From an uncultured Actinomycetes bacterium (GTDB lineage: Bacteria; Actinomycetota; Thermoleophilia; RBG-16-64-13): 64,000 nt of DNA. Positions within the stretch are counted from its first letter, which is position 1. Every line of letters starts with the position of its first letter. Under the pieces are notes generated by a model. The model saw only the letters and a list, made by a program, of their open reading frames with translations, was not told where the DNA came from and did not search any database. Both the position numbers and the translations under genes were made by a program. The stretch lies in contig CAWDXC010000009.1 of assembly GCA_963806155.1 (NCBI GenBank), forward strand, positions 198,520 to 262,519, read 5' to 3'. This document shows positions 26,073 through 50,717 of the stretch, piece after piece.

Positions 26073-26231
26073 GTCCACTGCCTTCCTGAGGCTCCTTGAC
26101 GCCATCTCCTCAAACCATCTTTGACCGGACCTGACGACCTGCTGCGGTCTTCCGAAGAACGCTCCGTAAGGCCCCCTTTCAAAGCGAACGCATTAGCACC
26201 CCCTCCCATCTGAACGAGGGGTCCTGGAAGC

Positions 26232-26270: not shown

Positions 26271-26323
26271 AAAACCCAATACTGCCCAGCCTCGCACCAT
26301 CCATCAACGTCCCGCGAGAGGCG

Positions 26324-27259
26324 CTAGAGCTCGAGCTCCGGGGGCAGAGGCGGCATCTGGCCGGCCAGTTCGGCGATGAGCCCCTCGTACTTGGCAAGCC
26401 GCGAATCGATGTCGATCTCGCCGCTGCGCGCCGCCTGCGCAGCGAGGAACAGCCACAAGTGAGCGCGAAGCAGGTCCGCCCGCGTGTGATTCCCTGGAGA
26501 GACCGCTCCGAAGACCGTCTCCTGGTAGGCGCCGAACAGGCTCAGGGCTATGAGGTCATCACGCGCGGCCGGTCTTCCCGCAGGCGCGGGGACCGCCGTG
26601 AGCTCCTTCATGATGCGCGCCACAGTACCGGCGAGACCTTCCTGGATGGACCGGCGCAGGTCGACGTCCTCCTGCGTTCCTTCCACGCGGATCACGGCAA
26701 AGGCGGCCACACCGAGTTGAAACACGCGAAAGTGGCTGAAGACGTCCCACAGCAAGCGCTCCGCCGGATCCTCCAAAGAAGCCGTCTTCTCGTCGGCGTA
26801 GCTGACACCCCAGTTCGTCAGCACACTCACGCATTCGGCCAGGAGCCTGCGTTTGCTGGGAAAGTGGGTGTAGAAGAGACTGGCGGTGATGCCCAGCCGA
26901 CGCATGAGGGTGGAGACGTGCGTGTTCTTGTAGCCCTTGGTGGAGAACTCGCGCGTGGCAAGAGCCAGGATGCGATTGTGCATCCGCTCATACTCCAGAG
27001 ACACAAGATCCACCGCGGTCTCGTTCGCCTGGTCGACGCGATGCTGAAGTCTATCCTCGATCTCGAGGATGGAAAGTCCGGTCCGTTTCAGCTCGGCGAT
27101 CTCCTGCAGGATCTTGACGTGGTCTTCGGTGTACAAGGATCGGCTGGCAGCGGTCTTCTGAGGGCGGGGGAGCAATCCCAGCCTGAGATAGTAGTGGATG
27201 GTGGTTCGGGGTACCCCACTCACCTTCTCGAGCTCCCGAATGGTAAACGCCTGGATCAC
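26324..27259 (-). CDS. MerR-HTH / TetR-like fusion transcriptional regulator, paralog 1
   Basis: N-term MerR HTH TIRELEKVSGVPRTTIHYYLRLGLLP, then TetR-like HTH domain (~residues 90-150); GTG start with GAGGAG SD. Confidence 0.75.
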   Translation of the reverse strand: MIQAFTIRELEKVSGVPRTTIHYYLRLGLLPRPQKTAASRSLYTEDHVKILQEIAELKRTGLSILEIEDRLQHRVDQANETAVDLVSLEYERMHNRILALATREFSTKGYKNTHVSTLMRRLGITASLFYTHFPSKRRLLAECVSVLTNWGVSYADEKTASLEDPAERLLWDVFSHFRVFQLGVAAFAVIRVEGTQEDVDLRRSIQEGLAGTVARIMKELTAVPAPAGRPAARDDLIALSLFGAYQETVFGAVSPGNHTRADLLRAHLWLFLAAQAARSGEIDIDSRLAKYEGLIAELAGQMPPLPPELEL

Positions 27260-27577
27260 CTTTGCTCCTCGCTAGGGACCGACGCGAGCCGAGAGGACTC
27301 CTCAGGTGCGTCGACTCCGACCGCTGCACATGCCGACAACAAGATTAGTCTCAAGTGACGGTCCGTGGCAACAACACCGCAGACGCTCGGGGCTTGCCGC
27401 CGACGTGCACAGACCGGGCACTAGCTTCGCTGAGGACCGTTCTCGATGTGGGAGGCAGGAGGGGCGCTGCTGGATCTAATTGAACTCCACTTGACAGAAA
27501 GCTATATCAAGTCTTAGACTTCAATCATGTAGCGCTGTAAGGGCCGATCGGCAGGCCGGTGACGAGCCACGCAGATC

Positions 27578-27598
27578 AGTGACCGTCTTGCGGTCACT
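27578..27598. promoter_or_regulatory. inverted repeat AGTGACCG-n5-CGGTCACT, candidate operator
   Basis: 8-bp perfect arms, ~20 bp upstream of the -35 of the alpha1 promoter. Confidence 0.4.
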
Positions 27599-27615
27599 AT
27601 GTATATTAACTTTAA

Positions 27616-27647
27616 GACTTGAGATGTTCTTTCAAACTTGCTAGTGT
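27616..27647 (+). promoter_or_regulatory. candidate promoter: GACTTGAGAT (-35 TTGAGA), 17-nt spacer, -10 TAGTGT
   Basis: shared architecture with promoters at 41333, 50875 and 63294 (minus strand); implies ~185-nt leader before ATG 27839. Confidence 0.45.
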
Positions 27648-27838
27648 GACGGAGGAGCGGGATGTCGCTGCAGAGAGTCGTGGGTGATCGGCCAGGATGG
27701 AGTCCTCACAGGAACAGTCGACGAGGATAGCGCGCATGACCCATCCTCCGGGTTGTCTTCGCCAAACCTCAGCTGAAGAAGACTGATTATGGAGAATCGA
27801 GCCGGATCCCAACTGGGGCAACATGAGGAAAGGAGCAC

Positions 27839-31344: not shown

Positions 31345-31407
31345 CGCGTGCTTAGGATTAAGCTTGATAGGTCGGCTGGCGGCCCCAGCGAGATAGAAGG
31401 AGCGAGA

Positions 31408-32439
31408 TTGATCCCGGTACTCACTATCCGAGATCTCGAGGAATCGAGCGGGGTTCCGCGGACCACGATCCACTACTATCTGAGCATAGGCCTGCTCCCC
31501 CGCCCCCAGAAGACCGCCCGTAGCCGGTCTCTCTACACCAGGGACCACCTCGACATACTGCGAGAGATCGTGGAGCTCAAGCAGGCCGGGCTCGCTCTGG
31601 AGGAGATCCAAGCACAGCTGCAGCATACGGTCGACCGGGCCAACAACGGCGAGGTTGATCTTGCCGCTCAAGAGCATCGGCGCGTGCACGATAGGATCCT
31701 GGCTCTGGCTGCCCAGGAACTGGTCGCAAAGGGTTATAGGAAGACGCATGTCACGACTATTGTGCGCAAGCTCGGCATCACCACAGCCGTCTTCTACAGC
31801 CATTTTCCGAGCAAGCGCGCGCTCCTCTCGGAATGCGTCAGCGCGCTTCTGGGCTGGGGCCTCGAGTTTGTAGATGCCAAAGAGGCCTCGACGGACGACC
31901 CGGCCGAGCGCTTGCTCTGGCTTGTCTTTGGGCATTCGCACGTGTTTCAACTCGGCTCGACCGCCATGGCCCTGACCCGCGTCGACGGCGTCCAGGACGA
32001 GAGCGACCCACAAAGGCCTATGGAGGCGCTCTTCAAAAACATCGTGGAGCACATCAAGGGGGACCTGGCATACGTGCCCAGCGAAGGCTCGAAGCCACCC
32101 GCGGTGCCGGACGAACTCGTGGCCCACAGCCTGTTCGGTGCATATGAGCAGACTGTATTCAGGTCATTCTCGGACAAGATGTACACCCGTGAGGATCTGC
32201 TATTGACTCACCTATGGCTGTTCTTGGCCGTGCAGGCTGCGCGAAGCGGCGAGATCGACGTCGATTCAAGACTGGATAGATACAGGGAACTGGTGTCACA
32301 GCTCGCCACCCAGATGCCGCCTCTTCCCCCGCTCTTGCAGAATGAGAGCACCCATGACCGAGGCGGGGGGACGACGGCCGATCGGATGACTGCTGATGGT
32401 TTATCCCCGATCACTACGCAAGCTGACTCAATGACTTGA
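31408..32439 (+). CDS. MerR-HTH / TetR-like fusion transcriptional regulator, paralog 2
   Basis: TTG start with AAGGAG SD 6 nt upstream; LTIRDLEESSGVPRTTIHYYLSIGLLP MerR HTH plus TetR-like domain; ~55% identical to paralog 1. Confidence 0.7.
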   Translation: MIPVLTIRDLEESSGVPRTTIHYYLSIGLLPRPQKTARSRSLYTRDHLDILREIVELKQAGLALEEIQAQLQHTVDRANNGEVDLAAQEHRRVHDRILALAAQELVAKGYRKTHVTTIVRKLGITTAVFYSHFPSKRALLSECVSALLGWGLEFVDAKEASTDDPAERLLWLVFGHSHVFQLGSTAMALTRVDGVQDESDPQRPMEALFKNIVEHIKGDLAYVPSEGSKPPAVPDELVAHSLFGAYEQTVFRSFSDKMYTREDLLLTHLWLFLAVQAARSGEIDVDSRLDRYRELVSQLATQMPPLPPLLQNESTHDRGGGTTADRMTADGLSPITTQADSMT

Positions 32440-32624: not shown

Positions 32625-34121
32625 ATGAGCGAGGCGAACGAAACTCACGAAGACCGCAGCCGGGAAGAACAAGAGGAGAAGAGGCCGGCGAGACCGGTCA
32701 GCCGGCGTGATTTCCTGAAGATCGCCGGAATCGCCGGAGCGGCTGTGGGGGCCGGCGCCGGCCTGGGCGGCCTACTCGCCGCCTGCGGCGAAGAAGAAAC
32801 GACCACGACGACCGCGGGCGAGACGACCACCACCACGACCGCCGCCACCACAACGACCGCCGCCGCCGCGACGACCACCGTCAGCACTGCGGCAGAGACC
32901 GGCCGCGAGCTCAAGCTCGGTTTTGTTACGCCGACAACCGGGGCCCTGGCCTCCTTCGGCGTGCCCGACGGATACTGCGTCGAACGGGCGAAAGAGGTGA
33001 TCGCGGACGGGATCGTATGCGGTGACGGACTGAAGCACCCTGTCACAATCAAGGTCGTTGACAGCCAGTCAGACCCCAACCGGGCGGCACAGGTAGCAGG
33101 CGACCTCATCCTAAACGACAAGGTGGATATTATCCTCGTAGCCTCCGCACCCGACAACGTCGTGCCGGTGTCCGGTCAGGCTGAAGCGCTCGGGACACCG
33201 TGCCTCTCCTGCGACGCCCCCTGGCAGAGCTATATGGAGCCTCGGACCGGAGGCGACCTGACGGCGGTGTTCAAGTGGACCTATCACGTCTTCTTTGGTG
33301 GGGAGGACAGCTTCGACATCATGGCCGACGTGTTTCACCGGTTGCCGACCAACAACGTCCTGGCTTTGCTGTATTCCAACAGCTCCGACGGCAACGCCGT
33401 ACATGATCTCGAACTGCCGGTGCTCGAGGAGATGGGCTTCACCGTTGTCGATGGTAGTGGTTTTTCGGAAGGCACCGAAGACTTCACCTCGATAATCAGC
33501 ATGTTCAAGAAGGCGGGGGCCGAGCTGGGGCACGGTCTGCTTTCTCCCCCGGACTTCATCAACTTCTGGAAGCAATCGATCCAGCAGTCCTGGCTGCCAA
33601 AAACGTCCATATGGGGCAAAGCCCTACTTTTCCCCCAGTCCATGGAAGCGATCGGCCCCATCGGCTACGGTCTCTGTGCGGACCAGTGGTGGGGAGCGGA
33701 CTGGCCCTACAAGTCGGCTCTACTTGGAGAGACCTGCCGGCAGTTCGCAGATGACTATGAGGCCCGGACCGATTCGCAGTGGACACAGCCCGTGGCTCAC
33801 TTCATGCTCTTCGAGTGGGCCTATGACGTACTCAGTCGAACGGCCAGCGTGGATGACAAGGACGCGATCATGACGGCGGTCAAGAGCACCAAGCTTGAGA
33901 CCATTCTCGGCACCGTCGATTTTTCAGCGCCGGTGGAGCCGGTCGGACCGCCCTGGGCCGCGGGTCCACGGCACGTCGTGGAGAACGTCTACAAGATCAA
34001 CCATCCTGCCGGCCAGTGGATCAAGGGCACGAAGTGGCCCTTCGATTTGGTTACCGTCAGCAATGCCGGGTGTCCCGCCATTCCCGTGGCAGCCGAGCTA
34101 CAGCCCTATACCGTGAGCTGA
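32625..34121 (+). CDS. ABC transporter substrate-binding lipoprotein, PBP1 family, paralog 3
   Basis: GGAGGGGGAC SD; RRDFLKIAGIAGAAVGAGAGLGGLLAACG lipobox; Thr-rich linker. Confidence 0.85.
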   Translation: MSEANETHEDRSREEQEEKRPARPVSRRDFLKIAGIAGAAVGAGAGLGGLLAACGEEETTTTTAGETTTTTTAATTTTAAAATTTVSTAAETGRELKLGFVTPTTGALASFGVPDGYCVERAKEVIADGIVCGDGLKHPVTIKVVDSQSDPNRAAQVAGDLILNDKVDIILVASAPDNVVPVSGQAEALGTPCLSCDAPWQSYMEPRTGGDLTAVFKWTYHVFFGGEDSFDIMADVFHRLPTNNVLALLYSNSSDGNAVHDLELPVLEEMGFTVVDGSGFSEGTEDFTSIISMFKKAGAELGHGLLSPPDFINFWKQSIQQSWLPKTSIWGKALLFPQSMEAIGPIGYGLCADQWWGADWPYKSALLGETCRQFADDYEARTDSQWTQPVAHFMLFEWAYDVLSRTASVDDKDAIMTAVKSTKLETILGTVDFSAPVEPVGPPWAAGPRHVVENVYKINHPAGQWIKGTKWPFDLVTVSNAGCPAIPVAAELQPYTVS

Positions 34122-37311: not shown

Positions 37312-38897
37312 TCAATCCTTGGCCGAGATGTACATCGCTGCCTCGGAGACGCCGTTGGGATCGAAGGTCTTCTTGATCTGGCGTAGCCACAGATGGTAGT
37401 CGCAGAGATGCGGACCCCATTTGTCGTGCGCGCGATCGCCCCAAACGGTCACCGGCGCCGTGTAGCGTCCTTTGATGGCTAGGTCCTCGCATCTGTCGGT
37501 GAATTCCATGAGGTCTCGCCAACCGGCCCCGGTCGGGTGGGTCATGACGAGCTGTTCCGCGTGACCTGTGTGCCCGTTCTCGTAGACCATCCCGATTACG
37601 CAGTCCGGACCGTCATCGGCCCTGATGTTGCCTCGAGCCTGGTACTCCTTCTTGAGTCTCCATGCATTCCAGCATCAGTCTGGTGGAGGTCTGGAACATG
37701 GCGGAGTCGCCGATCGAGCCCAGGAACCTCCCCACCGCCCGGAATGCTTCTCTCACAGCGCCGCTGAACCTGGTCTCCGACCAGAGAATCTCCCTCTTGA
37801 CCTCGGGCTTCTCGATGTGGCTCAAGAGCACGCCGCCCGTCTCCTCCAGGATCTGGGCGAGGACCTTCTTCCTGTACTCGAACTCCGGCATGGTGGCGCC
37901 GGAGATCATCACCAGGAAGCCGGGGCGGCCGGCGGACTCCTCCTGCATCTGCCGGAACAGCACCTCCGCGTCACTGCCGGTGCCGGTGAAGGCCTCGGCC
38001 ATCATCGGCAGGGGCAGCCGGAAGATCATGGTCGCTATCTCACTCTCCCCCATCTTGATGGCGGCTTCGATCAGCTTGTCCCAATCGGGGAAGAGGGGAT
38101 GGTGGATATCGAAGTTCGGCGGCATCTCCTTGTACGAGTAGGAGGGCGAAACACCCTCCAACTCCGGCTCGGGCGGGCCGTAGTAGGGGTATAGCTTCAC
38201 CCCAGCTTTGGTGAAGATCCCCAGGCCGCCCATCACACCCTGAGGACCGTGTATCAGTCCTCGTAGGGAGGGGCCCGGACCGTCGCCGCAGAACCAGCCG
38301 GCGCCGGCTCCCGACGGAACCGAACTTGAGCAGCTCGCCGTCGGGAGTCACCCATTCCACCGCCAGGGTGTTGCGGTCTCCGCAGCTGGTGCTCACGCCG
38401 CCGGACCCGGTACCCTGATGAGCCGTGATGGGCATGGCGCAGGTGTTGCTACCCGCTCCGATCATGTGCACGTTCAGGCCTATCTTCATCGCTTCGGCCT
38501 GGAGTATGGCGCAGGTGACATAGGGTTCCACGACGGCGTACATGCTCTTCTCGTTCAGTTCGAGGATGCGGTTGAACCTCCGCATATCCACGTGGATGGC
38601 ATCGTCGTCCAGGCCGAGCGCGCTGTAGAAGCCCCAGCCGTTGCTGATCGCCTTGTATCTGACGTTGTATTTGTTGCAGGCTTTGACGAGCGCCTGCACT
38701 TCCTCCGTAGTGCCCGGGAGCACGATGGCGCCCGACCTGGGAAGGAACGGTGTGTCGGTGAAGAGTTCTGCGCCCCACTGGAACGCATAGGAGTCCAGTA
38801 CGGCCGGTTCCTCAGAGATGTAGTCTGGCCCGACAATCTCCTCGAAAGCCTTGTAAGCGTTCCTGTTGTTCAGAGCCACCGCCGGCATCTCCTTCAA
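37312..38897 (-). pseudogene. tandem duplicate of the 35733..37298 FAD oxidase, two 1-bp insertions (frameshifts)
   Basis: three ORF pieces (38040..38897, 37613..38236, 37312..37590) ~90% identical to the intact upstream copy; DNA alignment shows extra bases near 38290 and 37670. Confidence 0.7.
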
Positions 38898-40171
38898 TCC
38901 TCGAGGGACTGCTGCAACAACTCGACGACGTCATAGACCTTGAGACTGTCCCCGGAGGCCTCGACGGAATCCCTGAAGTTCCTGATGCACCACGGGCACG
39001 CGGTGACCAACGCTTCCGCCCCCGTATCCTTGGCCTCCGTGATCCTCTCCGCGGCCGTCCACTCGCTGAACTCGGGGTACGCGTCCAGCACACCGCCCCC
39101 GGCACCGCAGCACCAGGTGTACTCCTTGATCCTGGTCATCTCGACCAGCTTGACCCCTGGGATGCTCTTGAGCACGTTCCTCGGCGGCTCGTACACGCCG
39201 TAAGTGCCCTTTCGTATCTGCTTGTCGGGTATATGCCGCCACCGTTCGTCGGGCTTGGTGCTGATGACCCCTTCCCAATGCACCCACGGCTCCCCCAACC
39301 GGCCCAGGTGGCAGGGGTCGTGGTAGGTGACGGCCATGGGGACTTCTTTCCTGGGTGTGAGACGACCTTCCGCCATGAGCTTGTCCAGGTATTCGGTGAT
39401 GTGGAAGACCTGGATGTCCTTCTTTAGACCTAGCTTGTCGTAGAGGACCTTGAACGCGTGGTAACAGTCGGAGCAGCTGGTCACCACGGTGCCTGCCTTC
39501 GCGGCCCGGAGCATTTCCACGTTGTTCTCGGCGTACTTGGTGAGCTCACTGACATAACCGAGATCGTAGGCCCTGCCCCCACAGCAGTTCTCGTCCTTGC
39601 CCCCGATGGCGACGTCCACTCCGGCCTTTTGCAGGAGACCCACGGCCGCACGTGCAACGGGCCAGAGCTCGGTGTCGTAGCTATAGCGACACCCGGTGTG
39701 GAAATAGACTCCCGCCCCGTCCCTGGTGATGTTCTTCACATCGAGGCCTTCGGCCCAGTTGCCCCTGTCGGCTTTCCGCTCGAGGAGCATGTTGTCTTCT
39801 TTTCGTAGTCCGTCGATGATCGCCATATGCGCCGGATTGAGTTCGCCGTCGCCCACGCATTTGATCCGCATCTCATAGAGCGGCTGCAACACTTCTATAT
39901 CATTACCGTACTTACATGAAATATCGCATGCTCCACACATCTGGCATTGGTAAACGATTTCCAGCAGTTTCTCACTATAGTCGATACGTCCATCGTTCAA
40001 GGAGAGTGCGGTGATCAGCCTGCCACTCCCAGAATACGTGTGGAAGAGATACTTGGTTATGCTGGGGCAGCTGTAGGCGTATTTAGCATTGCTTATTACT
40101 GGTTGGGGTATGAATTTGCAGTTAGAGCACCGGGCACATCTGATCATGTACTCTCGTAAGTCTTGCAGCAT
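38894..40171 (-). CDS. (Fe-S)-binding protein with CCG domains (GlcF/HdrD-like paralog)
   Basis: ~60% identical to 23332..24588 product. Confidence 0.8.
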   Translation of the reverse strand: MLQDLREYMIRCARCSNCKFIPQPVISNAKYAYSCPSITKYLFHTYSGSGRLITALSLNDGRIDYSEKLLEIVYQCQMCGACDISCKYGNDIEVLQPLYEMRIKCVGDGELNPAHMAIIDGLRKEDNMLLERKADRGNWAEGLDVKNITRDGAGVYFHTGCRYSYDTELWPVARAAVGLLQKAGVDVAIGGKDENCCGGRAYDLGYVSELTKYAENNVEMLRAAKAGTVVTSCSDCYHAFKVLYDKLGLKKDIQVFHITEYLDKLMAEGRLTPRKEVPMAVTYHDPCHLGRLGEPWVHWEGVISTKPDERWRHIPDKQIRKGTYGVYEPPRNVLKSIPGVKLVEMTRIKEYTWCCGAGGGVLDAYPEFSEWTAAERITEAKDTGAEALVTACPWCIRNFRDSVEASGDSLKVYDVVELLQQSLED

Positions 40172-40235
40172 CTTCCTTCTCCCTGATCTTTCATTAGCCT
40201 TTCAACTCAGCTGCGTTCCTATCTGTCTGCCCCGG

Positions 40236-41195
40236 TCACCCCCAGCTTAGGCTTGCCAGGTCCCGCATGGCGATGCGGACGGTGCCCAGAGAGGCATCGC
40301 CTGAGATGACGGTGGAACCATCGATGCGCAGGCGGACCTCCGTCCCATCGGCGGCGACCAGATCGACCAGACACTCCTCGCCGGGCTCGCTGACGCTAAG
40401 GCGGGAGACGCGGGTCAACTCGACGTCGATCTGAGCCGGGCCGAGGGCTCCGGTGAGTTGGGTCTTGCCATTGCAGCGGACTACGCCGAGGTCGAACGGC
40501 GTGCCGTCGCGGCTGACCACCCGGGCTGGAGCATCCGGACCCGGCGAAGTGCCCTGCTCTGAAGAAGCCGCCGAAGCAAGCCAGCGCGTGACGGCATCGA
40601 CCATGAAGTTGACCACTTGCTCCGGTGGATAGCGGTCGTCGAGGCGGGAACGGAACCAGAGGTTCTCGGCGAGGCCGATGAAGCCATAGGCGGCAAGTTC
40701 GGCATCGACGTCACGAGCCCGCCCCGCCTGTATCGCAGCCTCCAGATCCCTCCGGAGAGGCTCGGTGAGGATCTCGTACGCTTCGCGGGCCTTGGTCTTG
40801 ACCTCCACGTCCGGGGACAGTTCGGCCGCGCGCAGCAGGTTGATGATCCCCGGCCACCAGTCGTAGAGGTGGACGGCCTCCACCCGCGGACCGACTCTCG
40901 TGAAGAAATCGCCTTCTCGTATCTTGGGAAGTGATTCGAATTCCCTGATCCGCTCGGTAACGTGGTCGAAACAGGTGAGCAGGAGCTCCTTCTTGTTGCG
41001 GAAGTAGAGATAGAAGGTGCCCTTCCCCATGTTCAGCGAATCAGTGATGTCGCCGACCCGCACGCGATCGTAGCCGACCTCGTTGAACATGATGACCGCC
41101 CGCTCGATGATGCGGTCTCGCTTGTCCTTGAGCTCGTCTCCCGCAGGGGCCGCGGCGACGGCGGAGAGGGCAGCATGCTTGCCTGAAGCCATCAT
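40236..41195 (-). CDS. TetR family regulator with ~120-aa C-terminal extra domain
   Basis: ORF 40236..41378; start placed at ATG 41195 (MMASGK..) so that the downstream promoter lies in intergenic DNA; HTH RIIERAVIMFNEVGYDRVRVGDITDSLNMGKGTFYLYF. Confidence 0.65.
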   Translation of the reverse strand: MMASGKHAALSAVAAAPAGDELKDKRDRIIERAVIMFNEVGYDRVRVGDITDSLNMGKGTFYLYFRNKKELLLTCFDHVTERIREFESLPKIREGDFFTRVGPRVEAVHLYDWWPGIINLLRAAELSPDVEVKTKAREAYEILTEPLRRDLEAAIQAGRARDVDAELAAYGFIGLAENLWFRSRLDDRYPPEQVVNFMVDAVTRWLASAASSEQGTSPGPDAPARVVSRDGTPFDLGVVRCNGKTQLTGALGPAQIDVELTRVSRLSVSEPGEECLVDLVAADGTEVRLRIDGSTVISGDASLGTVRIAMRDLASLSWG

Positions 41196-41332
41196 AGACT
41201 GGTCTCTTCCTTGTGCCTCGCGTTCGTTCGCCCGCGGATGGGAAGTGACTCCCCAGTCACTGTCTGAGAGCATATCAGAATCGCGTTTTAGAGCCAAGCG
41301 TTCTGTTGGCCCTAACGCCGCGAGGGCAAAGC

Positions 41333-41361
41333 TTGACAGGCTCATAAGAAATCGGTAGTGT
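41333..41361 (+). promoter_or_regulatory. candidate promoter TTGACA, 17-nt spacer, -10 TAGTGT
   Basis: sigma70/sigmaA-like hexamers with ideal spacing, ~170 nt upstream of alpha2 ATG. Confidence 0.5.
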
Positions 41362-41366
41362 GGTTG

Positions 41367-41394
41367 TGACTGACCCACCAGTCATTCTGACTGA
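41367..41394. promoter_or_regulatory. TGACTG-n6-CAGTCA inverted repeat plus extra TGACTGA copy, candidate operator at +1
   Basis: same TGACTGAC core as the etfBA palindrome at 46713..46732. Confidence 0.4.
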
Positions 41395-41530
41395 TGCGAC
41401 GGTCATCCAGCGAATCCCGGGGGGGCTTCACATCTTTGCAGAACTTCTATTCATCACGGGCTTGTCGATCTGACGGGCAAACAAGCCACCCCCTCACGGC
41501 CCAGCGACACGGACAGAGGAGAGGTACGCG

Positions 41531-44179
41531 ATGACAGCGGATGAATCCAAGAGGCAGGTTCGCATCTCCGACAAGACGGTCCTCAAGTGTCTCGCCCAGT
41601 GTTCCTTCGCCCAGCAAGGCGAGTTGGCGTCTGTTGACGTGAAGGACGGGAAGATCGTCCGCATCCGTCCCCATCGCCACACCGAGCGGTACACGGTAGA
41701 AGAGCTGGGGCAGTATGAGCTAAACAAGGACGGCGTGAAGTACAAGACGCCACTCAAGGGTCTTCTGGCTCCCTACCAGATCGCCTACAAGAAGCGGGTC
41801 TACTCCCCCAACCGGATACTCTATCCACTCAAAAGGGTGGACTGGGATCCCAAAGGGGAACGCAACCCGCAGAACCGGGGTAAGAGCAAGTACGTGCGGA
41901 TCAGTTGGGATGAGGCCACGACCATCATCGCCGACGAGATCAAACGCATCCACAAGGAATACGGACCCCTTGGCATTCTTGCCCACGGAGACGGACACGG
42001 GGAGACCAAGACGATCCACGGACCTCACGCTGTCCAGATGGATCTGCTGCGTCTGATGGGTGGCTACACTCAGGCCATCAGAAATGCCGACAGCTGGGAG
42101 GGCTGGTACTGGGGCGCCAAGCATGTCTGGGGCAACGGGGAGAACGGCCTCCTACTACCCGCCGACAACATCATGAACGATGTGACCCAGAACACGGACA
42201 TGATCATCCACATCGGCGCCGATCTCGAAACGACGCCGTGGGGCTTCGCCGGCCAATTCCCCAGCACGGTCATCTACTACTGGCAGAAGTTAGGTAAGAA
42301 GCAGGTGTTCGTCTCTCCCGATCTCAACTATTCCGGAGCCGTGCACGCGAGCAAGTGGATCCCCATCCTGCCCAACACCGATGCCGCGCTGCATCTGGCC
42401 ATCGCCTACGTGTGGATGACCGAAGGCACCTACGACAAGGATTACGTAGCTGACCATGTGGTCGGCTTCGACAAGTTCGAGGACTATGTGCTGGGAAGAG
42501 AAGACGGGGTAGCTAAGACCCCGGAGTGGGCTTCGGCTAAGACAGGCGTGCCCGAGTGGACCATCAAAGCTCTTGCCCGGGAGTGGGCGGCTCAGCCCAC
42601 CACGGTCATGCACTTCTACGGCGGCTCCTACATCCGCGGTCCTTACTCGCACGAGCCCGCCCGCCTGGAAGCGTGCCTGCTCGGCATGCAAGGGTTGGGC
42701 AAACCGGGCTGCCACCAGTACTTCAAGATGGGGGGCGATCACCACTGGATGTGCGATACGCCCCGCCCGGTGAGAACAATCGATGACGTGCGGTTTGGGG
42801 TCGCGGGGAACGTCTGGGCTGGTCAGGGGCAGGTCTATATTTCATCGAAGCAGATCATTCCCAAGACGCAGGTCAGCCAGGCCATCCTCAATCCACCCAC
42901 CAGCACGATGGGGAGCACCATCCTTATGGGGCCGCTTGAAGACCAGTTCAAACGCTACGACTACCCCATCCCCGCGGAAGAGGGCGGCACCGAGATCCAC
43001 ATGATCTGGATGGACAACCCCTGCCGCACCACCTGCTGGAACGACGGCTTCCTGACTGTGGAAGCCTTCCGGAGCCCCAAGATCGAGACTCTGGTTGTGC
43101 AACACCCCTGGCTGGAAAACGACACCATCCTGGCCGACATCATCCTGCCTATCAACACCAAGCTGGAAGAAGAAGACATCGCTCGGTTCGCTCAAAACGT
43201 GGCGGTTCACGGGTGCGCTATTGAAGACCAAGCCATAGAGCCTGTCGGGGAGTCTTTGAGCGATTATGAAGCTGTGGGTGAGGTGGCTAAGAAACTGGGT
43301 CTCTATGAGGAGTTCACCCGCGGGAAGACCGTCCGGGAAAAGATCAGACTGGGCTTCCAGGACATGGCCATCGACGATCTGATCAGCTGGGAGGAGTTCT
43401 CCGACAAGAGGTACTACATCGTCCCCACCGACCCCGAATGGGAGAAGGTTCCCGCTGGTCTGAGAGAGTTCTACGAGGATCCGGAAGCGCATCCCTTGGA
43501 GACCCCCAGCGGCAAGCTCGAGTTCTACTCACAGCGGCTGGCGGACAACTTCCCCGACGACACCGAAAGAGGGCCCCTTCCGAAGTGGGTCGAAAGCAGC
43601 GTCACCCACGATGAGAGGGTCTCCAGCCCCCGGGCGAAGAAGTATCCGCTCCTTCTCATGAGCAACCACGGAAGATGGAGGACCCACGCCCAGAACGACG
43701 ACATCACCTGGCAACGGGAGATCATGACCTGCAAGGTCAGGGGCTGGGACGGCTACATGTACGAACCCATCTGGATCAATCCCAAAGACGCCGAAGCCCG
43801 AGGTATCAAGGACGGGGACATCGTCAAGCTCTTCAACGAACGAGGCACGGTGCTCTGCGGGGCTCTGGTGTGGGAACGGATCATGCCGGGAGCGGTCTCG
43901 AGCGACCACGGCTCCCGGGCGGACCTGATCTGCACCGACGGCCCCGAGGGCTACCTCGATAGAGGCGGGGCCAACAACCTGATCTCGCCAATAAACGGAA
44001 CGTCCCAGAACTGCTGGGGCATGGCCACCAGCGGCTATCTGGTGGACGTACAGAAGGTGAGCATGGCCGAAATGGAGGAGTGGAAGAAGAAATATCCGGC
44101 GGCCTTTGCGAGGAAGTACGACCCGGCTTCCGGTCTCAGGTTCGAGGCGTGGGTGCTGGAGGAAGGAGAGGCCCGATGA
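41531..44179 (+). CDS. molybdopterin oxidoreductase large subunit, transhydroxylase-like (alpha2; ~85% identical to alpha1)
   Basis: 882 aa; GAGGAGAGG SD; same motifs as alpha1. Confidence 0.8.
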   Translation: MTADESKRQVRISDKTVLKCLAQCSFAQQGELASVDVKDGKIVRIRPHRHTERYTVEELGQYELNKDGVKYKTPLKGLLAPYQIAYKKRVYSPNRILYPLKRVDWDPKGERNPQNRGKSKYVRISWDEATTIIADEIKRIHKEYGPLGILAHGDGHGETKTIHGPHAVQMDLLRLMGGYTQAIRNADSWEGWYWGAKHVWGNGENGLLLPADNIMNDVTQNTDMIIHIGADLETTPWGFAGQFPSTVIYYWQKLGKKQVFVSPDLNYSGAVHASKWIPILPNTDAALHLAIAYVWMTEGTYDKDYVADHVVGFDKFEDYVLGREDGVAKTPEWASAKTGVPEWTIKALAREWAAQPTTVMHFYGGSYIRGPYSHEPARLEACLLGMQGLGKPGCHQYFKMGGDHHWMCDTPRPVRTIDDVRFGVAGNVWAGQGQVYISSKQIIPKTQVSQAILNPPTSTMGSTILMGPLEDQFKRYDYPIPAEEGGTEIHMIWMDNPCRTTCWNDGFLTVEAFRSPKIETLVVQHPWLENDTILADIILPINTKLEEEDIARFAQNVAVHGCAIEDQAIEPVGESLSDYEAVGEVAKKLGLYEEFTRGKTVREKIRLGFQDMAIDDLISWEEFSDKRYYIVPTDPEWEKVPAGLREFYEDPEAHPLETPSGKLEFYSQRLADNFPDDTERGPLPKWVESSVTHDERVSSPRAKKYPLLLMSNHGRWRTHAQNDDITWQREIMTCKVRGWDGYMYEPIWINPKDAEARGIKDGDIVKLFNERGTVLCGALVWERIMPGAVSSDHGSRADLICTDGPEGYLDRGGANNLISPINGTSQNCWGMATSGYLVDVQKVSMAEMEEWKKKYPAAFARKYDPASGLRFEAWVLEEGEAR

Positions 44180-45018
44180 GCAAGGTCTTCATCTTTGACA
44201 CATCCATCTGTAATGGGTGCTACTGCTGCCAGCTCGCCTGCAAGGACGAGCACTGCGGGAACGACTGGACTCCCTACGCCAAACCGCAGCCCGACACCGG
44301 TCAGTTCTGGCTCAAGCTTTCCGAGCATGTGCGGGGTACGGTCCCCAAGGTGAAGGTGCACTACCTGGCGGCTCTGTGTAACCACTGTGACCAGGCCGCC
44401 TGCCTGGCCGCCTGCCAGGTAGAAGGGACCCTCTACAAGAGGGACGACGGTCTGGTCATCATCGACCCCGAGAAATGCACGGGCTGCACCAATTGCGTGA
44501 GCGCCTGCCCCTACCACGTCATCTATATGAACGAGAACCTGAACATCGCCCAGAAGTGCACCGGATGTGCTCATCTCTTGGACAACGGCTGGACGGAGCC
44601 CCGGTGTGTAGACGCGTGCCCCACCGGAGCGCTACAGTTCATGGAGGAAGCGGAGGCTCAGGGGCCAGTCCAGAGCTCGGAGGTGCTCCACCCGGAATAC
44701 GAGCAGAAGCCCCGGGTCTACTACCTGAACATCCCCAAGAAGTTCATCGCGGGTACCGTCTACGATCCTGTGAAGAAAGAGGTGGTGATCGGAGCTAGTT
44801 GCACCCTCACGAGCAACGGCAGCACCTGGACCACCACCACCGACGGCTTCGGGGACTTCTGGTTCGAGGGGCTCGAGATTGGCAGCTATTCCCTGGAGAT
44901 CGCGGCCCTGGGATTCCCCGCCAAGACCTTCGAGGACATTAGTACTGCGATGGACGTGAACCTGGGAGACATAGCCGTGGCCAAAGACAGCAGCAGCCAA
45001 GCCGGAGGTCGCCAATGA
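44176..45018 (+). CDS. 4Fe-4S ferredoxin beta subunit with C-terminal beta-sandwich domain (beta2)
   Basis: ATGA overlap with alpha2; same Cys clusters as beta1. Confidence 0.8.
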   Translation: MSKVFIFDTSICNGCYCCQLACKDEHCGNDWTPYAKPQPDTGQFWLKLSEHVRGTVPKVKVHYLAALCNHCDQAACLAACQVEGTLYKRDDGLVIIDPEKCTGCTNCVSACPYHVIYMNENLNIAQKCTGCAHLLDNGWTEPRCVDACPTGALQFMEEAEAQGPVQSSEVLHPEYEQKPRVYYLNIPKKFIAGTVYDPVKKEVVIGASCTLTSNGSTWTTTTDGFGDFWFEGLEIGSYSLEIAALGFPAKTFEDISTAMDVNLGDIAVAKDSSSQAGGRQ

Positions 45019-45115
45019 GGTGAGTGCCAGAAGACGTGCGCCGGGATGGACCTGATCTAGAAGCAGGCGCTCGAACCAAGGTGTCCGCGGGACGAAAGGA
45101 AGGCAGGGGGGATAG

Positions 45116-46594
45116 ATGTCGACCGACTTGGAAGACAACAATGCAGGCATCAGTAGGAAGGCCGGCGTCAGCCGGCGCGAATTCTTGAAGATTGCCGGCG
45201 CCGCCGGCGCAACAGTAGGCTTGGGCGCAGGATTGGGCGGGCTGGTGGCCGCCTGTGGAGAGGAAGCCGAGACGACCACTACGGCCGGTGTTACCACCAC
45301 GGCCGGTGTAACCACCACAGCCGGTGTCACCACCACAGCCGCCCCTACCACAGTCAGTAGCGCCGCCGAAGTCGGGCGTGAGGTCAAACTCGGTTTCATC
45401 ACCCCGATTACCGGCGGCCTGGCTCCTTTCGGAGCGACCGACCAGTACTGCGTCAAGCGGGCGCAGGCGGTGATCGGTGACGGGCTGGTAAGTGGCGACG
45501 GTCTGAAACACCCCGTCACCATCAAGCTCCAGGATAGTCAGTCGGACCCGAACCGGGCGGCCCAGGTCGCAGGCGACCTCATCATGAACGACAAGATAGA
45601 CCTTATGCTCGTGGCCTCGACGCCCGATAACGTTGTCCCGGTGGCCGGGACGTGTGAGGCCATGGGGATGCCGTGCATCTCCTTCGACTGCCCCTGGCAG
45701 GGCTTCTTCGCCCCCCGGACCAACGGCGACTATTCAATTGTGTTCAACTGGACCTATCACGTCTTCTTCGGGGCGGAAGAGGGGACCGCCATCATGCTGG
45801 ACCTTCTGAGCCAGTTGCCGACCAACAAGATCGTGGCCATGATGTATCCCAACGACGCCGACGGCAACTCCCTTCACCCTATCCATGCTGCGGCGTTCGA
45901 GGCGGCGGGCTTTACCCTCGTTGATGCCAGCGGTTTCCCGGTCGGCCTGGAGGATTTCACGGAGCAGATCAGCATGTTCAAGAAGGCGGGCGCCGAACAA
46001 GGGCACGGCGTGATGCCTCCGGCGGACTTCACCAACTTCTGGAAACAGTCGATCCAGCAGGGCTGGACGCCGAAGATGTCCATGTGGGCCAAGTCGCTGC
46101 TCTTCCCGGAGTCCCTCGAAGCTCTGGGGCCCATCGGCAACAATCTCTGCTGCGACCAGTGGTGGGGACCGGACTGGCCCTTCACGTCTACCGTCCTTGG
46201 ACAGACTTGCCGACAATTCACAGACGACTTCGAGGCCGAAGCGAAGCGGCAGTGGACCCAGCCCTTGGCCCACATGATGCTCTTCGAGTGGGCCATCGAC
46301 TTGCTCCAGCGGACGGTCAACGTGGACGACACGAACGCTATCATGGCGGCGATCAAGACCACGAAGCTGGACACTATCGCCGGCCCGGTCGATTTCTCGG
46401 CTCCGGTCGAACCGGTCGGCCCACCGTGGGCCGTTGGTCCGAGGCACATCGTGGAGAACGTCTACAAGGTGGGCCTCTGCGCCGGCCAGTGGCGCATGGG
46501 CGGCAAGTACATGTTCGACCTGATCAGCGTCAGCAATGGCGGGCACCCCCTGATCCCGGTGCAGGACAAGGCGCTGCCGTATACCGAGGCCTGA
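45116..46594 (+). CDS. ABC transporter substrate-binding lipoprotein, PBP1 family, paralog 4
   Basis: lipobox LVAACG; 15-bp tandem repeats encode (TTTAGV)x3 linker; ~65% identical to paralog 3. Confidence 0.85.
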   Translation: MSTDLEDNNAGISRKAGVSRREFLKIAGAAGATVGLGAGLGGLVAACGEEAETTTTAGVTTTAGVTTTAGVTTTAAPTTVSSAAEVGREVKLGFITPITGGLAPFGATDQYCVKRAQAVIGDGLVSGDGLKHPVTIKLQDSQSDPNRAAQVAGDLIMNDKIDLMLVASTPDNVVPVAGTCEAMGMPCISFDCPWQGFFAPRTNGDYSIVFNWTYHVFFGAEEGTAIMLDLLSQLPTNKIVAMMYPNDADGNSLHPIHAAAFEAAGFTLVDASGFPVGLEDFTEQISMFKKAGAEQGHGVMPPADFTNFWKQSIQQGWTPKMSMWAKSLLFPESLEALGPIGNNLCCDQWWGPDWPFTSTVLGQTCRQFTDDFEAEAKRQWTQPLAHMMLFEWAIDLLQRTVNVDDTNAIMAAIKTTKLDTIAGPVDFSAPVEPVGPPWAVGPRHIVENVYKVGLCAGQWRMGGKYMFDLISVSNGGHPLIPVQDKALPYTEA

Positions 46595-46626
46595 ACAGCT
46601 GGCTCACTGCGCGGTTGAGTGGACGC

Positions 46627-46664
46627 GGCGGCGCCCGCGAGGGCGCCGCCGCTCCCCCTTTTTG
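46627..46664 (+). terminator. intrinsic terminator: GGCGGCGCCC-GCGA-GGGCGCCGCC hairpin plus CCCCCTTTTT
   Basis: perfect 10-bp GC stem, 4-nt loop, T-tract, 33 bp after SBP stop. Confidence 0.65.
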
Positions 46665-46678
46665 CCCCGCCGGCGGGC

Positions 46679-46707
46679 TTGACAAGCCTTGGGTAACTGG
46701 GTAGGGT
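46679..46707 (+). promoter_or_regulatory. candidate etfBA promoter TTGACA, 17-nt spacer, -10 TAGGGT
   Basis: ideal spacing; immediately followed by palindrome. Confidence 0.5.
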
Positions 46708-46712
46708 GGTGC

Positions 46713-46732
46713 ATGACTGACGAGTCAGTCAT
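46713..46732. promoter_or_regulatory. palindrome ATGACTGA-cgag-TCAGTCAT, candidate operator
   Basis: perfect 8-bp arms directly downstream of the -10. Confidence 0.45.
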
Positions 46733-46834
46733 AACCCGAGCCGGCATCTACTGGACAGGTGTTTGACCCCGATGACCAAGGGGACGGGTCGGTCTGCATG
46801 CCGCCCGTCTTTCCCTAGAAGGGACGCGAAGCCC

Positions 46835-47623
46835 ATGTTGACTATCGTGGTCTGTGCCAAGCAAGTGGTCGACCCCGAGGCGCCTCTCTCCTTGTTCGAG
46901 ATCGCAGCCGATGGGAAAAACCTGGTCCCCCCCCCGGGCACTCCGCCGGTCTCAAGCACGTTTGACGAAAACGCCCTGGAGGCGGCGCTGCGCGTCAAGG
47001 AAGCGGTCGGCGCCAAAGTCGTCGTCCTCAGTATGGGGAACAAGCTGGCGAAGGCGGTCCTTAAGAAGACATTAGCGGCAGGCGCGGATGAACTGATCCT
47101 TCTGGAGGACGAGCAGTTCGTCGACTTGGAGAGCAGGGGTACGGCTCTGGCTCTGGCTAAGGCCATCGAGAAGATAGGCGACGTGGACCTCATCCTCTGC
47201 GGCCGGCAGGCCGCGGACACCGATGCCGGCCAGGTGGGGACTGGCATCGCGGCCATTCTGGACATCCCTGCCATAACCCTGGCCCAGAAACTAGAGGTCA
47301 AAGACGGCACCGTCCGGGTGGAGCGTCTCGTCGCCGAGGGGTATGAGGTCGTCGAGGCTGCCCTGCCGGCGTTGGTCACGGCCAGTAACGAGGTCGGGGA
47401 GTTGCGCTTTCCCCCAGTGAAAGCAGTGATCGCCGCGCAGAAGATGGATGTCACGGTCTGGGATGCTCAGGCGCTCGGGGTCGATCTTGCTGGTTCCGCC
47501 CGGACCGATCTCGTGAAGTTCTATGTTCCTGATCGCAAAGTCGAGTGTCAATTGATCGAGGGAAGCAGTCCGGAGGAGATCGCGGAGGGCATAGCCGCGG
47601 TCCTGAAGACCCGTGTCGTCTGA
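46835..47623 (+). CDS. etfB: electron transfer flavoprotein beta subunit
   Basis: MLTIVVCAKQVVDPE N-terminus, ETF beta fold. Confidence 0.85.
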   Translation: MLTIVVCAKQVVDPEAPLSLFEIAADGKNLVPPPGTPPVSSTFDENALEAALRVKEAVGAKVVVLSMGNKLAKAVLKKTLAAGADELILLEDEQFVDLESRGTALALAKAIEKIGDVDLILCGRQAADTDAGQVGTGIAAILDIPAITLAQKLEVKDGTVRVERLVAEGYEVVEAALPALVTASNEVGELRFPPVKAVIAAQKMDVTVWDAQALGVDLAGSARTDLVKFYVPDRKVECQLIEGSSPEEIAEGIAAVLKTRVV

Positions 47624-47663
47624 CGACCGGCCCGCCGCAAAGTCTATCTAGGGGGCACCGAAA

Positions 47664-48662
47664 GTGAGTGAAAGCAAGGGTGTGCTGTTCCTGGCCGAAC
47701 GTAGGGGCCAGGGACTCTCCAGGATGAGCGCCGAGCTTGCCACCGTCGGCCTCGAGCTCGCGGGTCACATGGGCGAGGGCTTGTCTGCAGTGCTGGTGGG
47801 CACCGATCTGGGAGACGGTGCGCAAGAGTTGATCGACATGGGCGTGCAGAAGGTGTACGTGGTCGAGGATCCGTTGCTCTCTCGATACGGTCCGGAGCCC
47901 TATCTGGCGCTCATGACTCAGATCTGCGAGGACGTGAAACCCAGGGTGCTATTGATGGGCCACACTGAGATCGGCCGAGACCTGGCGCCCCGCCTGGCGT
48001 TCAAGCTGGACACCGGCCTCGCACCGAACTGTGTCGCCCTGCACTTCGAACAGGGATCCGGGAACCTCCAGGCGACCCGTCCGGTCTTCGGGGGGAAGGC
48101 TCACGGGCTCTTCACCCTGACGGGTGCTACGCCGCACATACTCACGGTGGGCCTTAAAGTCTTTGAGCCGGCTGCCGCCGAGGCCGGCCGGCAGGGTGAA
48201 GTGGTGACTTTCGCTCCTGCGATCGACCCCGGCGCCTTCAAGATGTCGGTCGTCGACCGGGTCGAGGACATCACCGAGGGGGTCCGACTCGAGGACGCGG
48301 CCGTCATCGTCGCGGGAGGGCGCGGTGTGGGCAGCACCGAGGGTTTTGCCCAACTCCGGGAACTGGCGGCCTTGTTGGGAGGATGCATAGGCGCATCCCG
48401 GGCGCCGGTCGACAACGGGTTGGTCCCCAGCAGTCTACAGGTGGGTCTGACCGGCACGGTGGTGAGCCCCAACGTTTATATCGCCATCGGCATCTCTGGT
48501 GCCGCGCAGCATATGGCCGGTTGCTCGGCGTCCAAGACCATCATCGCGGTCAATCGCGACCTAGAAGCCCCGATCTTCCAGAGGGCCCATTTCGGAGCCG
48601 TCGCCGATTGGAAGGACATCCTGCCGCCGCTGACCGAGAAGTGCCGGTCGATGCTGAGCTAG
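47664..48662 (+). CDS. etfA: electron transfer flavoprotein alpha subunit
   Basis: GTG start; C-terminal FAD-binding motif SGAAQHMAG...IAVNRD. Confidence 0.85.
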   Translation: MSESKGVLFLAERRGQGLSRMSAELATVGLELAGHMGEGLSAVLVGTDLGDGAQELIDMGVQKVYVVEDPLLSRYGPEPYLALMTQICEDVKPRVLLMGHTEIGRDLAPRLAFKLDTGLAPNCVALHFEQGSGNLQATRPVFGGKAHGLFTLTGATPHILTVGLKVFEPAAAEAGRQGEVVTFAPAIDPGAFKMSVVDRVEDITEGVRLEDAAVIVAGGRGVGSTEGFAQLRELAALLGGCIGASRAPVDNGLVPSSLQVGLTGTVVSPNVYIAIGISGAAQHMAGCSASKTIIAVNRDLEAPIFQRAHFGAVADWKDILPPLTEKCRSMLS

Positions 48663-48708: not shown

Positions 48709-50717
48709 TTGACGTACACGTCCGCAGTCTTCGTGGTGGTCCTCCTGGCCGCCCTCGCGCTCTTCGTCTACTTCCTCGTGCCGCGGGTGCCGCTACCTGC
48801 TCCTGGGCCGGCCCGAGCCCAGGGCCGACCAGGTGGCGCGAAGGACCGGGGGGTTCCTGGCGCTAGTGTTCGGACAGAAGAAGCTCTTCAAGGAGCGCGT
48901 GGGCATCATCCACTTCTTCATCTTCTGGGGCTTCATCGTCATCGCGTTCGGCACTCTGCAGATCATCGGGGAGGGCCTGAGCGAGGACTTCTCGCTTCCT
49001 CTCATCGGTGACAGCAAGGCCTTCTATCTTCTGAAGGACATACTGAGCGTCCTGGTGCTGGTCGGGGTCGTCGTCGCGGCCTATATCCGCTACGTCGTGC
49101 GGCCGGCGCGCCTCAAGGCGAACCTCGAGGCCGGCGTGATTCTGGCTCTGATCTTCGGCCTCATCGTCACGGAGTTCTTCTACAGCGGCATCTCCTACGC
49201 CCTCGATCCCAGCGAGAGCCATTCACTGGCCTTCGTGACCGTGGCCATCGTCGCAGTTGGTGGACGGGGCAAGCGTGAGTACGTTGGAGTTGGCCCAGGA
49301 CATCCTCTGGTGGCTGCACATCCTTCTACTCCTGGGGTTCCTCGTCTACATCCCCATCTCCAAGCACCTGCACCTCCTCGCCTGCCCCTTCAACGAGTGG
49401 CTGAGGAACCTCAAGCCGCGAGGCGGGCAGATCTACCCGGTAGATTTCGAGAGCGAGGACGTGGAAGAGTTCGGCGTGAGCCGGGTGGAAGGCTTCACCA
49501 AGAAGCAGCTCCTCGACCTGTACGCATGTGCCGAGTGCGGCCGCTGCCAGGACAACTGCCCGGCCTACCAGAGCGGCAAGACTCTCTCCCCCAAGCTGCT
49601 GATGACCAAGCTCCGCGATCACCTGGTGGAGCAGGGGCCGAGCCTTCTACGAAAGACCAACACATCATCCTCCGAAGAAACGCCTGCCGGGGATGCAGCC
49701 GCACCCGCCATGATCGGCGACGTGATATCCACCGAAGAGATATGGGCCTGCACCACCTGCTACTCCTGCCAGGAGCAGTGCCCCGTGATGAACGAGCACG
49801 TCAACAAGATCGTCGACATGCGCCGGCACCTCGTCCTTATGGAGGGTGAGTTCCCCCACGAAGCGACCCTCGTGTTCAGGAACATGGAAGTGAACGGTAA
49901 TCCGCTCGGCGAGAGCGCGCTCATCCGCGGGGATCACCTCCGCAAGCTGGGGGTCCCCACCATCGGGGAAAACCCGGATGCGGAGATGATGTATTGGCCA
50001 GGATGCAGTGGTGCGCTCGACGCACGGAATCAAAAGGTCTCGACCGCTTTTGTGAAGCTGGCGGAATCTGCAGGCGTGTCGCTCGCCACGCTCGGGAATG
50101 AGGAGAAGTGCTGTGGGGAGGCGGCCCGGCGCCTGGGCAACGAGTACCTCTACCAGACCCTCGCCCTGGGAAACGTGGAGGTCCTCAACAGTTACGGCGT
50201 CAAAAGAATCGTCACCCAATGCCCACACTGTTTCAACACGCTCAAGAACGAGTATCCGCAGCTGGGCGGCGACTTCGAAGTCCTGCACCATACCCAGCTC
50301 CTCTCGGAACTCATCGAGGCCGGGAGGCTCGAGCTGGGAGCGTCGGAGCGCAAGAAGGTCACCTATCACGACGCCTGCTACCTAGGCCGCTACAACGGCA
50401 TCTACGAACTGCCGCGACAACTTCTTCGGACCGCCGGGCTCGACCTGGTAGAGATGCCCCGCAGGAAGACCAAGGCGTTCTGCTGCGGCGGGGGCGGTGG
50501 CCGGATGTGGCTGGAAGAGGACGAGGGTGAGCGCATAAACAACATCCGGACCGACGAGGTCCTCGGCGTGTCGCCGGATATCGCCGCCGTCGCCTGCCCT
50601 TATTGCCTGACCATGCTGAAGGACGGTGTCGATGCTCGCGAAGCGGGCGACCGGGTGCGAGTCATGGATATAGCCGAGATCCTCCAAGTGACCGTTTCGA
50701 GCAGTCCCACCCCCTAG
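48709..50717 (+). pseudogene. EtfD-like membrane-bound (Fe-S)-binding oxidoreductase (NarI/HdrE-like TM domain fused to CCG-domain FeS protein), two apparent frameshifts (~48788, ~49265)
   Basis: TM helices across frames 48709/48833/49257; cytoplasmic part has CAECGRCQDNCP, CTTCYSCQEQCP and CCG motifs (EKCCGE, FCCGGGGG); follows etfBA directly. Confidence 0.6.

Follow-up and report, generated by a model that had tools for sequence, protein, structure and literature searches.

A stretch of DNA of 64,000 nucleotides from an uncultured Actinomycetes bacterium (hereafter the window; contig CAWDXC010000009.1 of assembly GCA_963806155.1, positions 198,520 to 262,519) carries inverted repeats with TGAC and GTCA arms (dyads) close to the genes for a molybdopterin oxidoreductase, alpha2, and for an electron-transfer flavoprotein (ETF), etfBA. 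Do these dyads serve one repressor, and if so, which of the regulators encoded at the locus is it? A sequence-only reading had proposed such a common repressor for molybdoenzyme and ETF expression, and had named the adjacent TetR-family protein and the MerR/TetR fusions of the window as candidates. As judged from sequence comparison, we consider it likely, with a probability of roughly 0.8, that the dyads are operators of the TetR protein encoded at 40236–41195. This candidate is favoured by the co-occurrence of its family with the motif, by the near-identity of its recognition helix to that of SbtR, and because no other helix in the window rivals it.

Repeat unit and placement of the dyads

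The 14-bp sequence TGAC-n6-GTCA is the basic unit of the putative operators. Four exact copies are present in the 64 kb (starting at 41246, 41371, 46714 and 46718) against 1.12 expected from shuffled sequences, and all four fall within the tetR/alpha2 and PBP2/etfB intergenic regions, which together span 575 bp and where 0.010 copies are expected; for three or more independent n6 sites in 575 bp, the Poisson P is about 2 × 10−7. When TGAC-n(k)-GTCA was scanned over the whole window with k = 0–14, spacings other than n6 gave 0–2 scattered matches each, mostly intragenic, with the exception of n10, where the same 18-mers were counted again. These 18-mers, TGACTGAC-nn-GTCAGTCA, consist of two TGAC-n6-GTCA units that overlap with an offset of 4 bp. 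With at most one mismatch, TGACTGnnnnnnCAGTCA is matched three times against 0.12 expected, a count reached in 0 of 100 shuffles. The dyads thus stand above background in the window, as the n6 unit and as the 18-mer, but not as the 7-mer TGACTGA by itself, which is seen 5 times against 7.9 expected. A further palindrome, TGACCTGCAAGGTCA, lies inside the coding sequences of alpha1 and alpha2 (30090–30104 and 43725–43739) and of homologous genes (L141 at 1662, L143 at 6726); this conserved motif belongs to the coding sequence and is no operator, and it calls for caution when TGAC/GTCA dyads are counted.

The individual sites, labelled O_R, O_A1, O_A2 and O_E, are listed in Table 1. O_E is a perfect palindrome as had been noted, with 9-bp arms around a 2-bp centre, and holds two exact units (46714–46727 and 46718–46731) with the 4-bp offset, while O_R, the dyad reported near 41245, is one unit and not a double one. 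The TGACTG-n6-CAGTCA element of O_A1 is likewise where it had been described, and the "third TGACTGA" seen behind it proves to be part of another 18-mer, O_A2, of which it forms the left arm; O_A2 follows 21 bp after O_A1 on the same helical face. Between 24 and 58 kb, the intergenic sites found at up to one mismatch were those of O_R, O_A and O_E and one weak site at 48710, with no others.

The promoters in Table 1 were read by eye from the sequence and are backed by conservation. The three predicted promoters share a common design, TTGACA/TTGGCT-17-TAnnnT, with the operator 5–8 nt past the −10 element: the 18-mer of O_A1 begins 5 nt past the predicted −10 of alpha2, the 20-bp palindrome of O_E 5 nt past that of etfBA (its 18-mer core 6 nt past), and O_R lies 8 nt downstream of that of tetR. 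The palindromes therefore overlap the predicted promoter or start, as is found in TetR repressor/operator systems. The earlier statement that the dyads lie just downstream of a −10 holds for alpha2 and etfBA, with the promoters themselves predicted; the dyad upstream of alpha1 is not placed in this way. The TTGAC of the alpha2-type promoter is invariant in a seven-locus alignment, and a TAnnnT element is found at an equal distance from the tetR-proximal dyad in other loci (TATATT in L001, TATGTT in L002 and TACGCT in L003). An operator of the MerR type, with the dyad inside a −35/−10 spacer of 19–20 bp, was also considered and rejected: the spacers here measure 17 bp, and the −10 precedes the dyads.

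Since the alpha2 and etfBA promoters are alike beyond their hexamers (GGTAGnGTGGT...TGACTGAC), in a way that fits duplication, the palindromes could be by-products of a duplicated promoter, or else, lying in or near the transcribed leader, 5′-terminal RNA hairpins. That they are not protein sites at all is nevertheless hardly credible. Whereas the spacers vary, the TGAC/GTCA arms are constant in Actinobacteria, Desulfobacterota and Omnitrophota, which argues for sequence-specific recognition and not for covariation due to pairing only. O_A2 and several orthologous sites cannot make a good hairpin, a start predicted about 7 nt past the −10 would land inside the left arm, and the tetR-proximal site belongs to a different promoter on the opposite strand. 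Rfam showed no RNA family in 40000–48000, where the palindromes lie, or in 25900–27900.

The adjacent TetR protein and its relatives

The 319-residue TetR protein has an N-terminal helix-turn-helix (HTH) domain (TetR_N, PF00440, E = 4.3 × 10−12, residues 29–73) with the recognition helix GKGTFYLYF, of the G-x-G-T-x-Y-x-Y-F type; among the proteins encoded in the window, this helix is unique to it. The HTH is followed by a helical core, modelled at a predicted local distance difference test score (pLDDT) of about 90, and by an extra all-beta C-terminal domain (residues ~222–319) that is TagJ-like and is the sole unusual feature of the system.

The best PDB sequence match of the protein is 3vuq, SbtR (TTHA0167) of Thermus thermophilus HB8; 3vpr, an unnamed TetR-family entry, is also among the matches. 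The two helices are near-identical (GKGTIYLYFRDK versus GKGTFYLYFRNK). The SbtR site selected by REPSA (selection and amplification based on protection from a restriction endonuclease) is TGACTGGCCAGTCA, summarised as TGACYrnnyRGTCA (PMC4948773, PMC7022988). It is thus, in vitro, a TGAC-n6-GTCA sequence with the TGACTG half-site, as in the window, and O_R (AGTGACTCCCCAGTCACT) comes close to this consensus. Outside the HTH, however, the similarity is low. SbtR has 189 residues and no C-terminal beta domain, its regulon has been proposed to be transport-related, and its description involves a 14-mer site but neither double sites that overlap nor tandem sites spaced 21 bp apart.

The MerR/TetR fusions (26324–27259, here fusion A, and 31348–32439) would be alternative binders of the dyads, since both carry a TetR_N domain; their family often adjoins similar molybdoenzyme and flavin adenine dinucleotide (FAD)-oxidase/CCG genes, and MerR-TetR fusions of Desulfobacterota do co-occur with the motif. 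Yet their recognition helices are different (GITASLFYTHF and GITTAVFYSHF), with the base-contacting Gly replaced, and the two proteins share 17–21% identity with the TetR protein and lack its C-terminal domain. The motif-linked fusions of Desulfobacterota belong to another lineage, which has both GKGTFYLYF and the beta domain, and six homologue loci of the window fusion family showed no TGAC-n6-GTCA nearby. Binding by the window fusions is accordingly highly improbable, and this half of the earlier proposal was given up on account of the helix and the missing domain. As an observation in its own right, the two fusion regulators (on the minus and plus strands, respectively) belong to a large, mostly metagenomic family with more than 190 homologues.

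For comparison across loci, about 40 full-length homologues of the TetR protein, mostly metagenomic, and 140 loci from scans of genome and metagenome contigs were available, the nearest being from Actinomycetes and Thermoleophilia metagenome-assembled genomes (MAGs). In the close set with upstream DNA (n = 6: L001, L002, L003, L081, L082 and L083; TetR identity 57–71%), six of six loci have a single TGAC-n6-GTCA beside the TAnnnT of the tetR promoter, then a divergent TTGACA-17-TAnnnT promoter, and then either one double site or two sites 20–21 bp apart. The tandem second site, 20–21 bp on, is kept in L001, L002, L081, L082 and L083, and the remainder of the spacer has diverged around the kept operators and promoters. 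The targets vary: etfBA in L001, where etfB-etfA-CCG-alpha3 adjoin the TetR gene in the same order as in the window, a periplasmic-binding-protein (PBP) gene with etfBA in L002, an acyl-CoA-synthetase-like gene in L003, and, in L081–L083, genes that may be FAD-oxidase-like at their N-terminus. Since the TetR gene is constant while its targets differ, the motif is tied to the regulator and not to the targets.

The association extends further. Among the non-redundant full-length homologue loci, 20 of 27, Desulfobacterota fusions among them, carry an exact unit no more than 510 bp upstream, where 0.19 would be expected. TetR systems usually have the regulator gene beside its target or divergent from it, and an operator at the promoter of the regulator itself; with putative operators, this arrangement is found in the window and in the close set, and the upstream unit of the 20 loci fits it. 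The homologues in Desulfobacterota (L004, L006, L011, L012; P0040–P0044) are triple fusions of a MerR HTH, a TetR HTH and the beta domain; they keep GKGTFYLYF, and their operator stands 8–10 nt past TTGACA-17-TAnnnT. Remote TetR loci that were first meant as controls contained 16 exact 18-mers and became evidence instead, because they had been retrieved via the recognition-helix peptide GKGTFYLY. Many of the TetR proteins of ~190–210 residues with the same helix have a perfect ATGACTGACyrGTCAGTCAT 19–63 bp before the start codon; the distant TetR proteins with the palindrome come from Omnitrophota, Ratteibacteria and delta-proteobacterial MAGs.

A second point of comparison is FadR. On GATGAATGAATACTCATTCAT, Bacillus halodurans FadR (5gpc) forms a dimer of dimers over a pair of inverted repeats that are shifted by 4 bp, with Gly42 and Tyr45 touching bases and Thr43 and Tyr47 touching the backbone (PMC5397183). 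When the window TetR protein is aligned to 5gpa without gaps, its G59, T60, Y62 and Y64 fall on Gly42, Thr43, Tyr45 and Tyr47. The operators are also built alike, from direct-repeat half-sites (ATGAATGA versus ATGACTGA) that make two inverted repeats with a 4-bp offset. In B. subtilis, the TetR-type FadR represses lcfA-fadR-fadB-etfB-etfA (PMC5397183), which provides a precedent for the control of etfBA by such a TetR protein. Nonetheless, the half-sites differ at one position (A versus C), the sites differ in composition (AT-rich versus GC-rich), and the targets in the window are not beta-oxidation genes. An identification of the protein as FadR itself was rejected: the Bacillus FadR model NF053878 is the top NCBIfam match of the HTH but scores 38.5 bits against an equivalog cut-off of 200, over residues 23–79 only, and in Pfam TetR_C_4 (YsiA-like, PF08359) was not found, with TetR_C_13, TetR_C_7 and TetR_C_6 only below threshold. 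FadR (YsiA; B. subtilis 1vi0/3whb) responds to acyl-coenzyme A (acyl-CoA), which could be named as a ligand of the window protein only by analogy.

Two other comparisons are worth making. TTHB023 of T. thermophilus HB8, a locus tag not tied unambiguously to the name PfmR in PMC7022988, is a TetR repressor that prefers CTGACCGATCGGTCAG, which also has the form TGAC-n6-GTCA; among its genomic sites is CTGACTGACCGGTCAT, and two sites occur at some promoters (PMC7022988). It differs in its preferred half-site, TGACCG, in regulating fatty-acid biosynthesis genes (PMC7022988) and in having no beta domain. In systems of the QacR type (Staphylococcus aureus QacR, CgmR, SlmA), two dimers bind an extended palindrome over the transcription start (PMC5397183). 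The operators of that type are unrelated to those of the window in sequence and length, and the stoichiometry at the window sites is read from sequence only. The QacR operator is 28 bp long.

Several observations weigh against assigning the dyads to the adjacent TetR protein. Many TetR proteins with GKGTFYLYF, from Clostridia and Streptomyces loci, have no motif within ~450 bp upstream, and therefore the helix alone is no guarantee of an operator or of autoregulation. For the ligand-binding core, Pfam and NCBIfam gave no above-threshold match to a characterised family. O_A1 and O_A2 are imperfect, with one good 14-bp unit apiece. A generic sigma-70 consensus scan of 40–48 kb called no promoter, as TAGTGT and TAGGGT agree with TATAAT in only 3 of 6 positions, and both promoters and transcription starts are predictions. 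Finally, the 64 kb covers only part of the genome, lying on a contig of about 698 kb, and a paralogue elsewhere with the same helix could share or own the sites.

In the last case, the sites would belong to a wider regulon governed from outside the window, with the adjacent TetR protein as one binder or a minor one. The palindrome is indeed used by many TetR lineages with the GKGTFYLYF helix, and SbtR and TTHB023 of T. thermophilus bind overlapping sites (PMC7022988). The divergent TetR/operator arrangement, however, is conserved in at least seven loci, which points to the local gene, and the window holds no second copy of the helix. We regard control by a distant paralogue as quite unlikely, and the adjacent TetR protein as the probable owner of the operators.

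The alpha1 dyad and the genes of the locus

One more dyad, TGAC-n9-GTCA, had been counted with the others. It is present at 27578 as described, between fusion A and alpha1, but its membership in the regulon did not hold up, since its spacing is n9, it does not directly follow a predicted −10 and it is not conserved; we treat it as a separate site, outside the operator set. Its half-sites, GTGACCG, are those of the L001 tetR-proximal site (AGTGACCG-ca-CGGTCAGT), and a perfect 8+8 dyad is improbable by chance (0.17 expected for a looser pattern), both of which could speak for binding by the TetR protein in another spacing mode. Such binding is nevertheless unlikely: the spacing is 3 bp longer than in the n6 unit, so that distance and helical phase both change, the dyad does not follow immediately on a predicted −10, and the window contains no second copy. 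The dyad is also missing upstream of the 96%-identical orthologue of fusion A (L145/L147), and no similar one was found at six further loci of the fusion family (L141–L144, L148 and L149). In all, eight loci with homologues of fusion A were read, one of which lacked DNA sequence.

This dyad lies in an AT-rich island (27470–27640) of a window with 62% GC, upstream of alpha1. The island contains two further dyads, ACTTGA-n12-TCAAGT (27489–27512), which overlaps a TTGACA hexamer, and AAGTCT-T-AGACTT (27509–27521); both could serve the fusion regulator as sites of the MerR type. The long non-coding flanks of fusion A (26100–26330 and 27260–27400, minus strand) are by eye largely conserved in the metagenome contigs L145–L147 and match no Rfam family; perhaps they function as leaders or as regulatory RNAs.

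Table 1. Positions in the window of the dyads, the predicted promoters and the surrounding genes
Feature	Position	Strand	Sequence or description	Remark
O_R	41244–41261		AGTGACTCCCCAGTCACT	single TGAC-n6-GTCA unit at 41246–41259; proposed autoregulatory site
O_A1	41367–41384		TGACTGACCCACCAGTCA	TGACTG-n6-CAGTCA; exact TGAC-n6-GTCA unit at 41371–41384
O_A2	41388–41405		TGACTGATGCGACGGTCA	1 mismatch to 18-mer; 21 bp after O_A1, same helical face
O_E	46713–46732		ATGACTGAC-ga-GTCAGTCAT	perfect 9+2+9 palindrome, 20 bp
alpha1 dyad	27578–27598		AGTGACCG-tcttg-CGGTCACT	TGAC-n9-GTCA; between MerR-TetR fusion A and alpha1
tetR promoter (predicted)	41269–41297	−	−35 TTGGCT (41292–41297), −10 TATGCT (41269–41274)	17-bp spacer
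alpha2 promoter (predicted)	41333–41361	+	−35 TTGACA (41333–41338), −10 TAGTGT (41356–41361)	17-bp spacer
etfBA promoter (predicted)	46679–46707	+	−35 TTGACA (46679–46684), −10 TAGGGT (46702–46707)	17-bp spacer
TetR-family regulator	40236–41195	−	319 residues	CCG/Fe-S and FAD_binding_4 genes follow on the same strand
alpha2 operon	41531–46594	+		Pfam, NCBIfam
alpha2	41531–44179	+	molybdopterin oxidoreductase	followed by Fe-S beta2, to 45018
Periplasmic-binding-protein-like gene	45116–46594	+	twin-arginine translocation (TAT) signal	
Terminator-like hairpin	46625–46664	+	GCGGCGGCGCCC-gcga-GGGCGCCGCCGC and T run	core flagged by terminator scan
etfB	46835–47623	+		Pfam, NCBIfam
etfA	47664–48662	+		Pfam, NCBIfam
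CCG/Fe-S protein gene	49257–50717	+		followed by molybdoenzyme genes (two more alpha/beta pairs), 51038 onward

The genes around the operators are listed in Table 1. Alpha2 belongs to the dimethyl sulphoxide (DMSO)-reductase family by Pfam and NCBIfam, without reaching an NCBIfam equivalog, and the terminator-like hairpin stands between its operon and the etf promoter. Co-transcription may continue past etfA. The etfB leader of ~100 nt (46760–46834) is similar by eye to 7690–7770 of L001 and has a GC-rich hairpin (GGGACGGG...CCCGTC) just 5′ of the ribosome-binding site, with no Rfam match. Peripla_BP_6 genes with TAT-type signal peptides (45116–46594 and 32625–34121, both on the plus strand) share clusters with molybdoenzyme alpha/beta genes, and a partner of this type is unusual for this enzyme family. 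The FAD_binding_4 gene (37613–38897, minus strand) is seemingly split into two overlapping open reading frames (285 and 207 residues), where L001 has a single frame of 521 residues; a frameshift, a pseudogene or an error in the assembly might account for the split.

Proposed mechanism and significance

In the mechanism that we propose from sequence and by analogy, one TetR dimer would bind each 14-bp TGAC-n6-GTCA unit. Two dimers would occupy the element (A)TGACTGAC-nn-GTCAGTCA(T), as at etfBA, each from a different face of the helix and in the manner of the dimer of dimers in the B. halodurans FadR-DNA crystal, and at the tandem alpha2 sites O_A1 and O_A2 two dimers would sit on the same face. 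Without inducer, the bound protein would cover the transcription start and block initiation at the tetR, alpha2 and etfBA promoters, and through O_R it would regulate its own gene together with the CCG/FAD-oxidase genes downstream. Repression would end when a small molecule, which by analogy might be a CoA thioester or an intermediate of the pathway, binds to the helical core and frees the DNA; expression of the molybdoenzyme, ETF-module and FAD-oxidase genes would then begin jointly.

The earlier idea of a common repressor for molybdoenzyme and ETF genes therefore survives in part: the comparative evidence and the SbtR-like helix back it for alpha2 and etfBA but not for alpha1. Coordination of the molybdoenzymes is accordingly only partly supported, and would be direct for alpha2, would reach alpha3 and alpha4 only if these are co-transcribed with etfBA, and would leave out alpha1.

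As to type, this is a conventional SbtR/FadR-like TetR repressor-operator system, with new lineage and targets. The C-terminal domain is the only element that may teach something new about TetR proteins. It is conceivable, though doubtful, that the TagJ/ImpE-like tandem beta-barrel, fused to this TetR protein and to the Desulfobacterota fusions, defines a TetR subclass of distinct architecture that integrates two signals. If so, the beta domain would bridge dimers on tandem operators 20–21 bp apart, or alternatively would loop to the tetR-proximal site ~125 bp away or act as a second sensor, and a two-signal regulator would govern the anaerobic electron-transfer modules made up of molybdoenzyme, ETF and FAD-oxidase genes.

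Taken together, a molybdoenzyme operon of the pyrogallol-transhydroxylase-like kind, the ETF and the FAD-oxidase/CCG genes would all be under one local TetR protein, which would give a concrete regulon for an uncultured actinobacterial lineage and suggests that these genes serve one catabolic electron-transfer pathway. It would also extend the SbtR/FadR operator code, which has been defined by experiment (TGAC-n6-GTCA, and double sites with a 4-bp offset), to numerous uncultured phyla, and may thereby help to predict regulons in MAGs.

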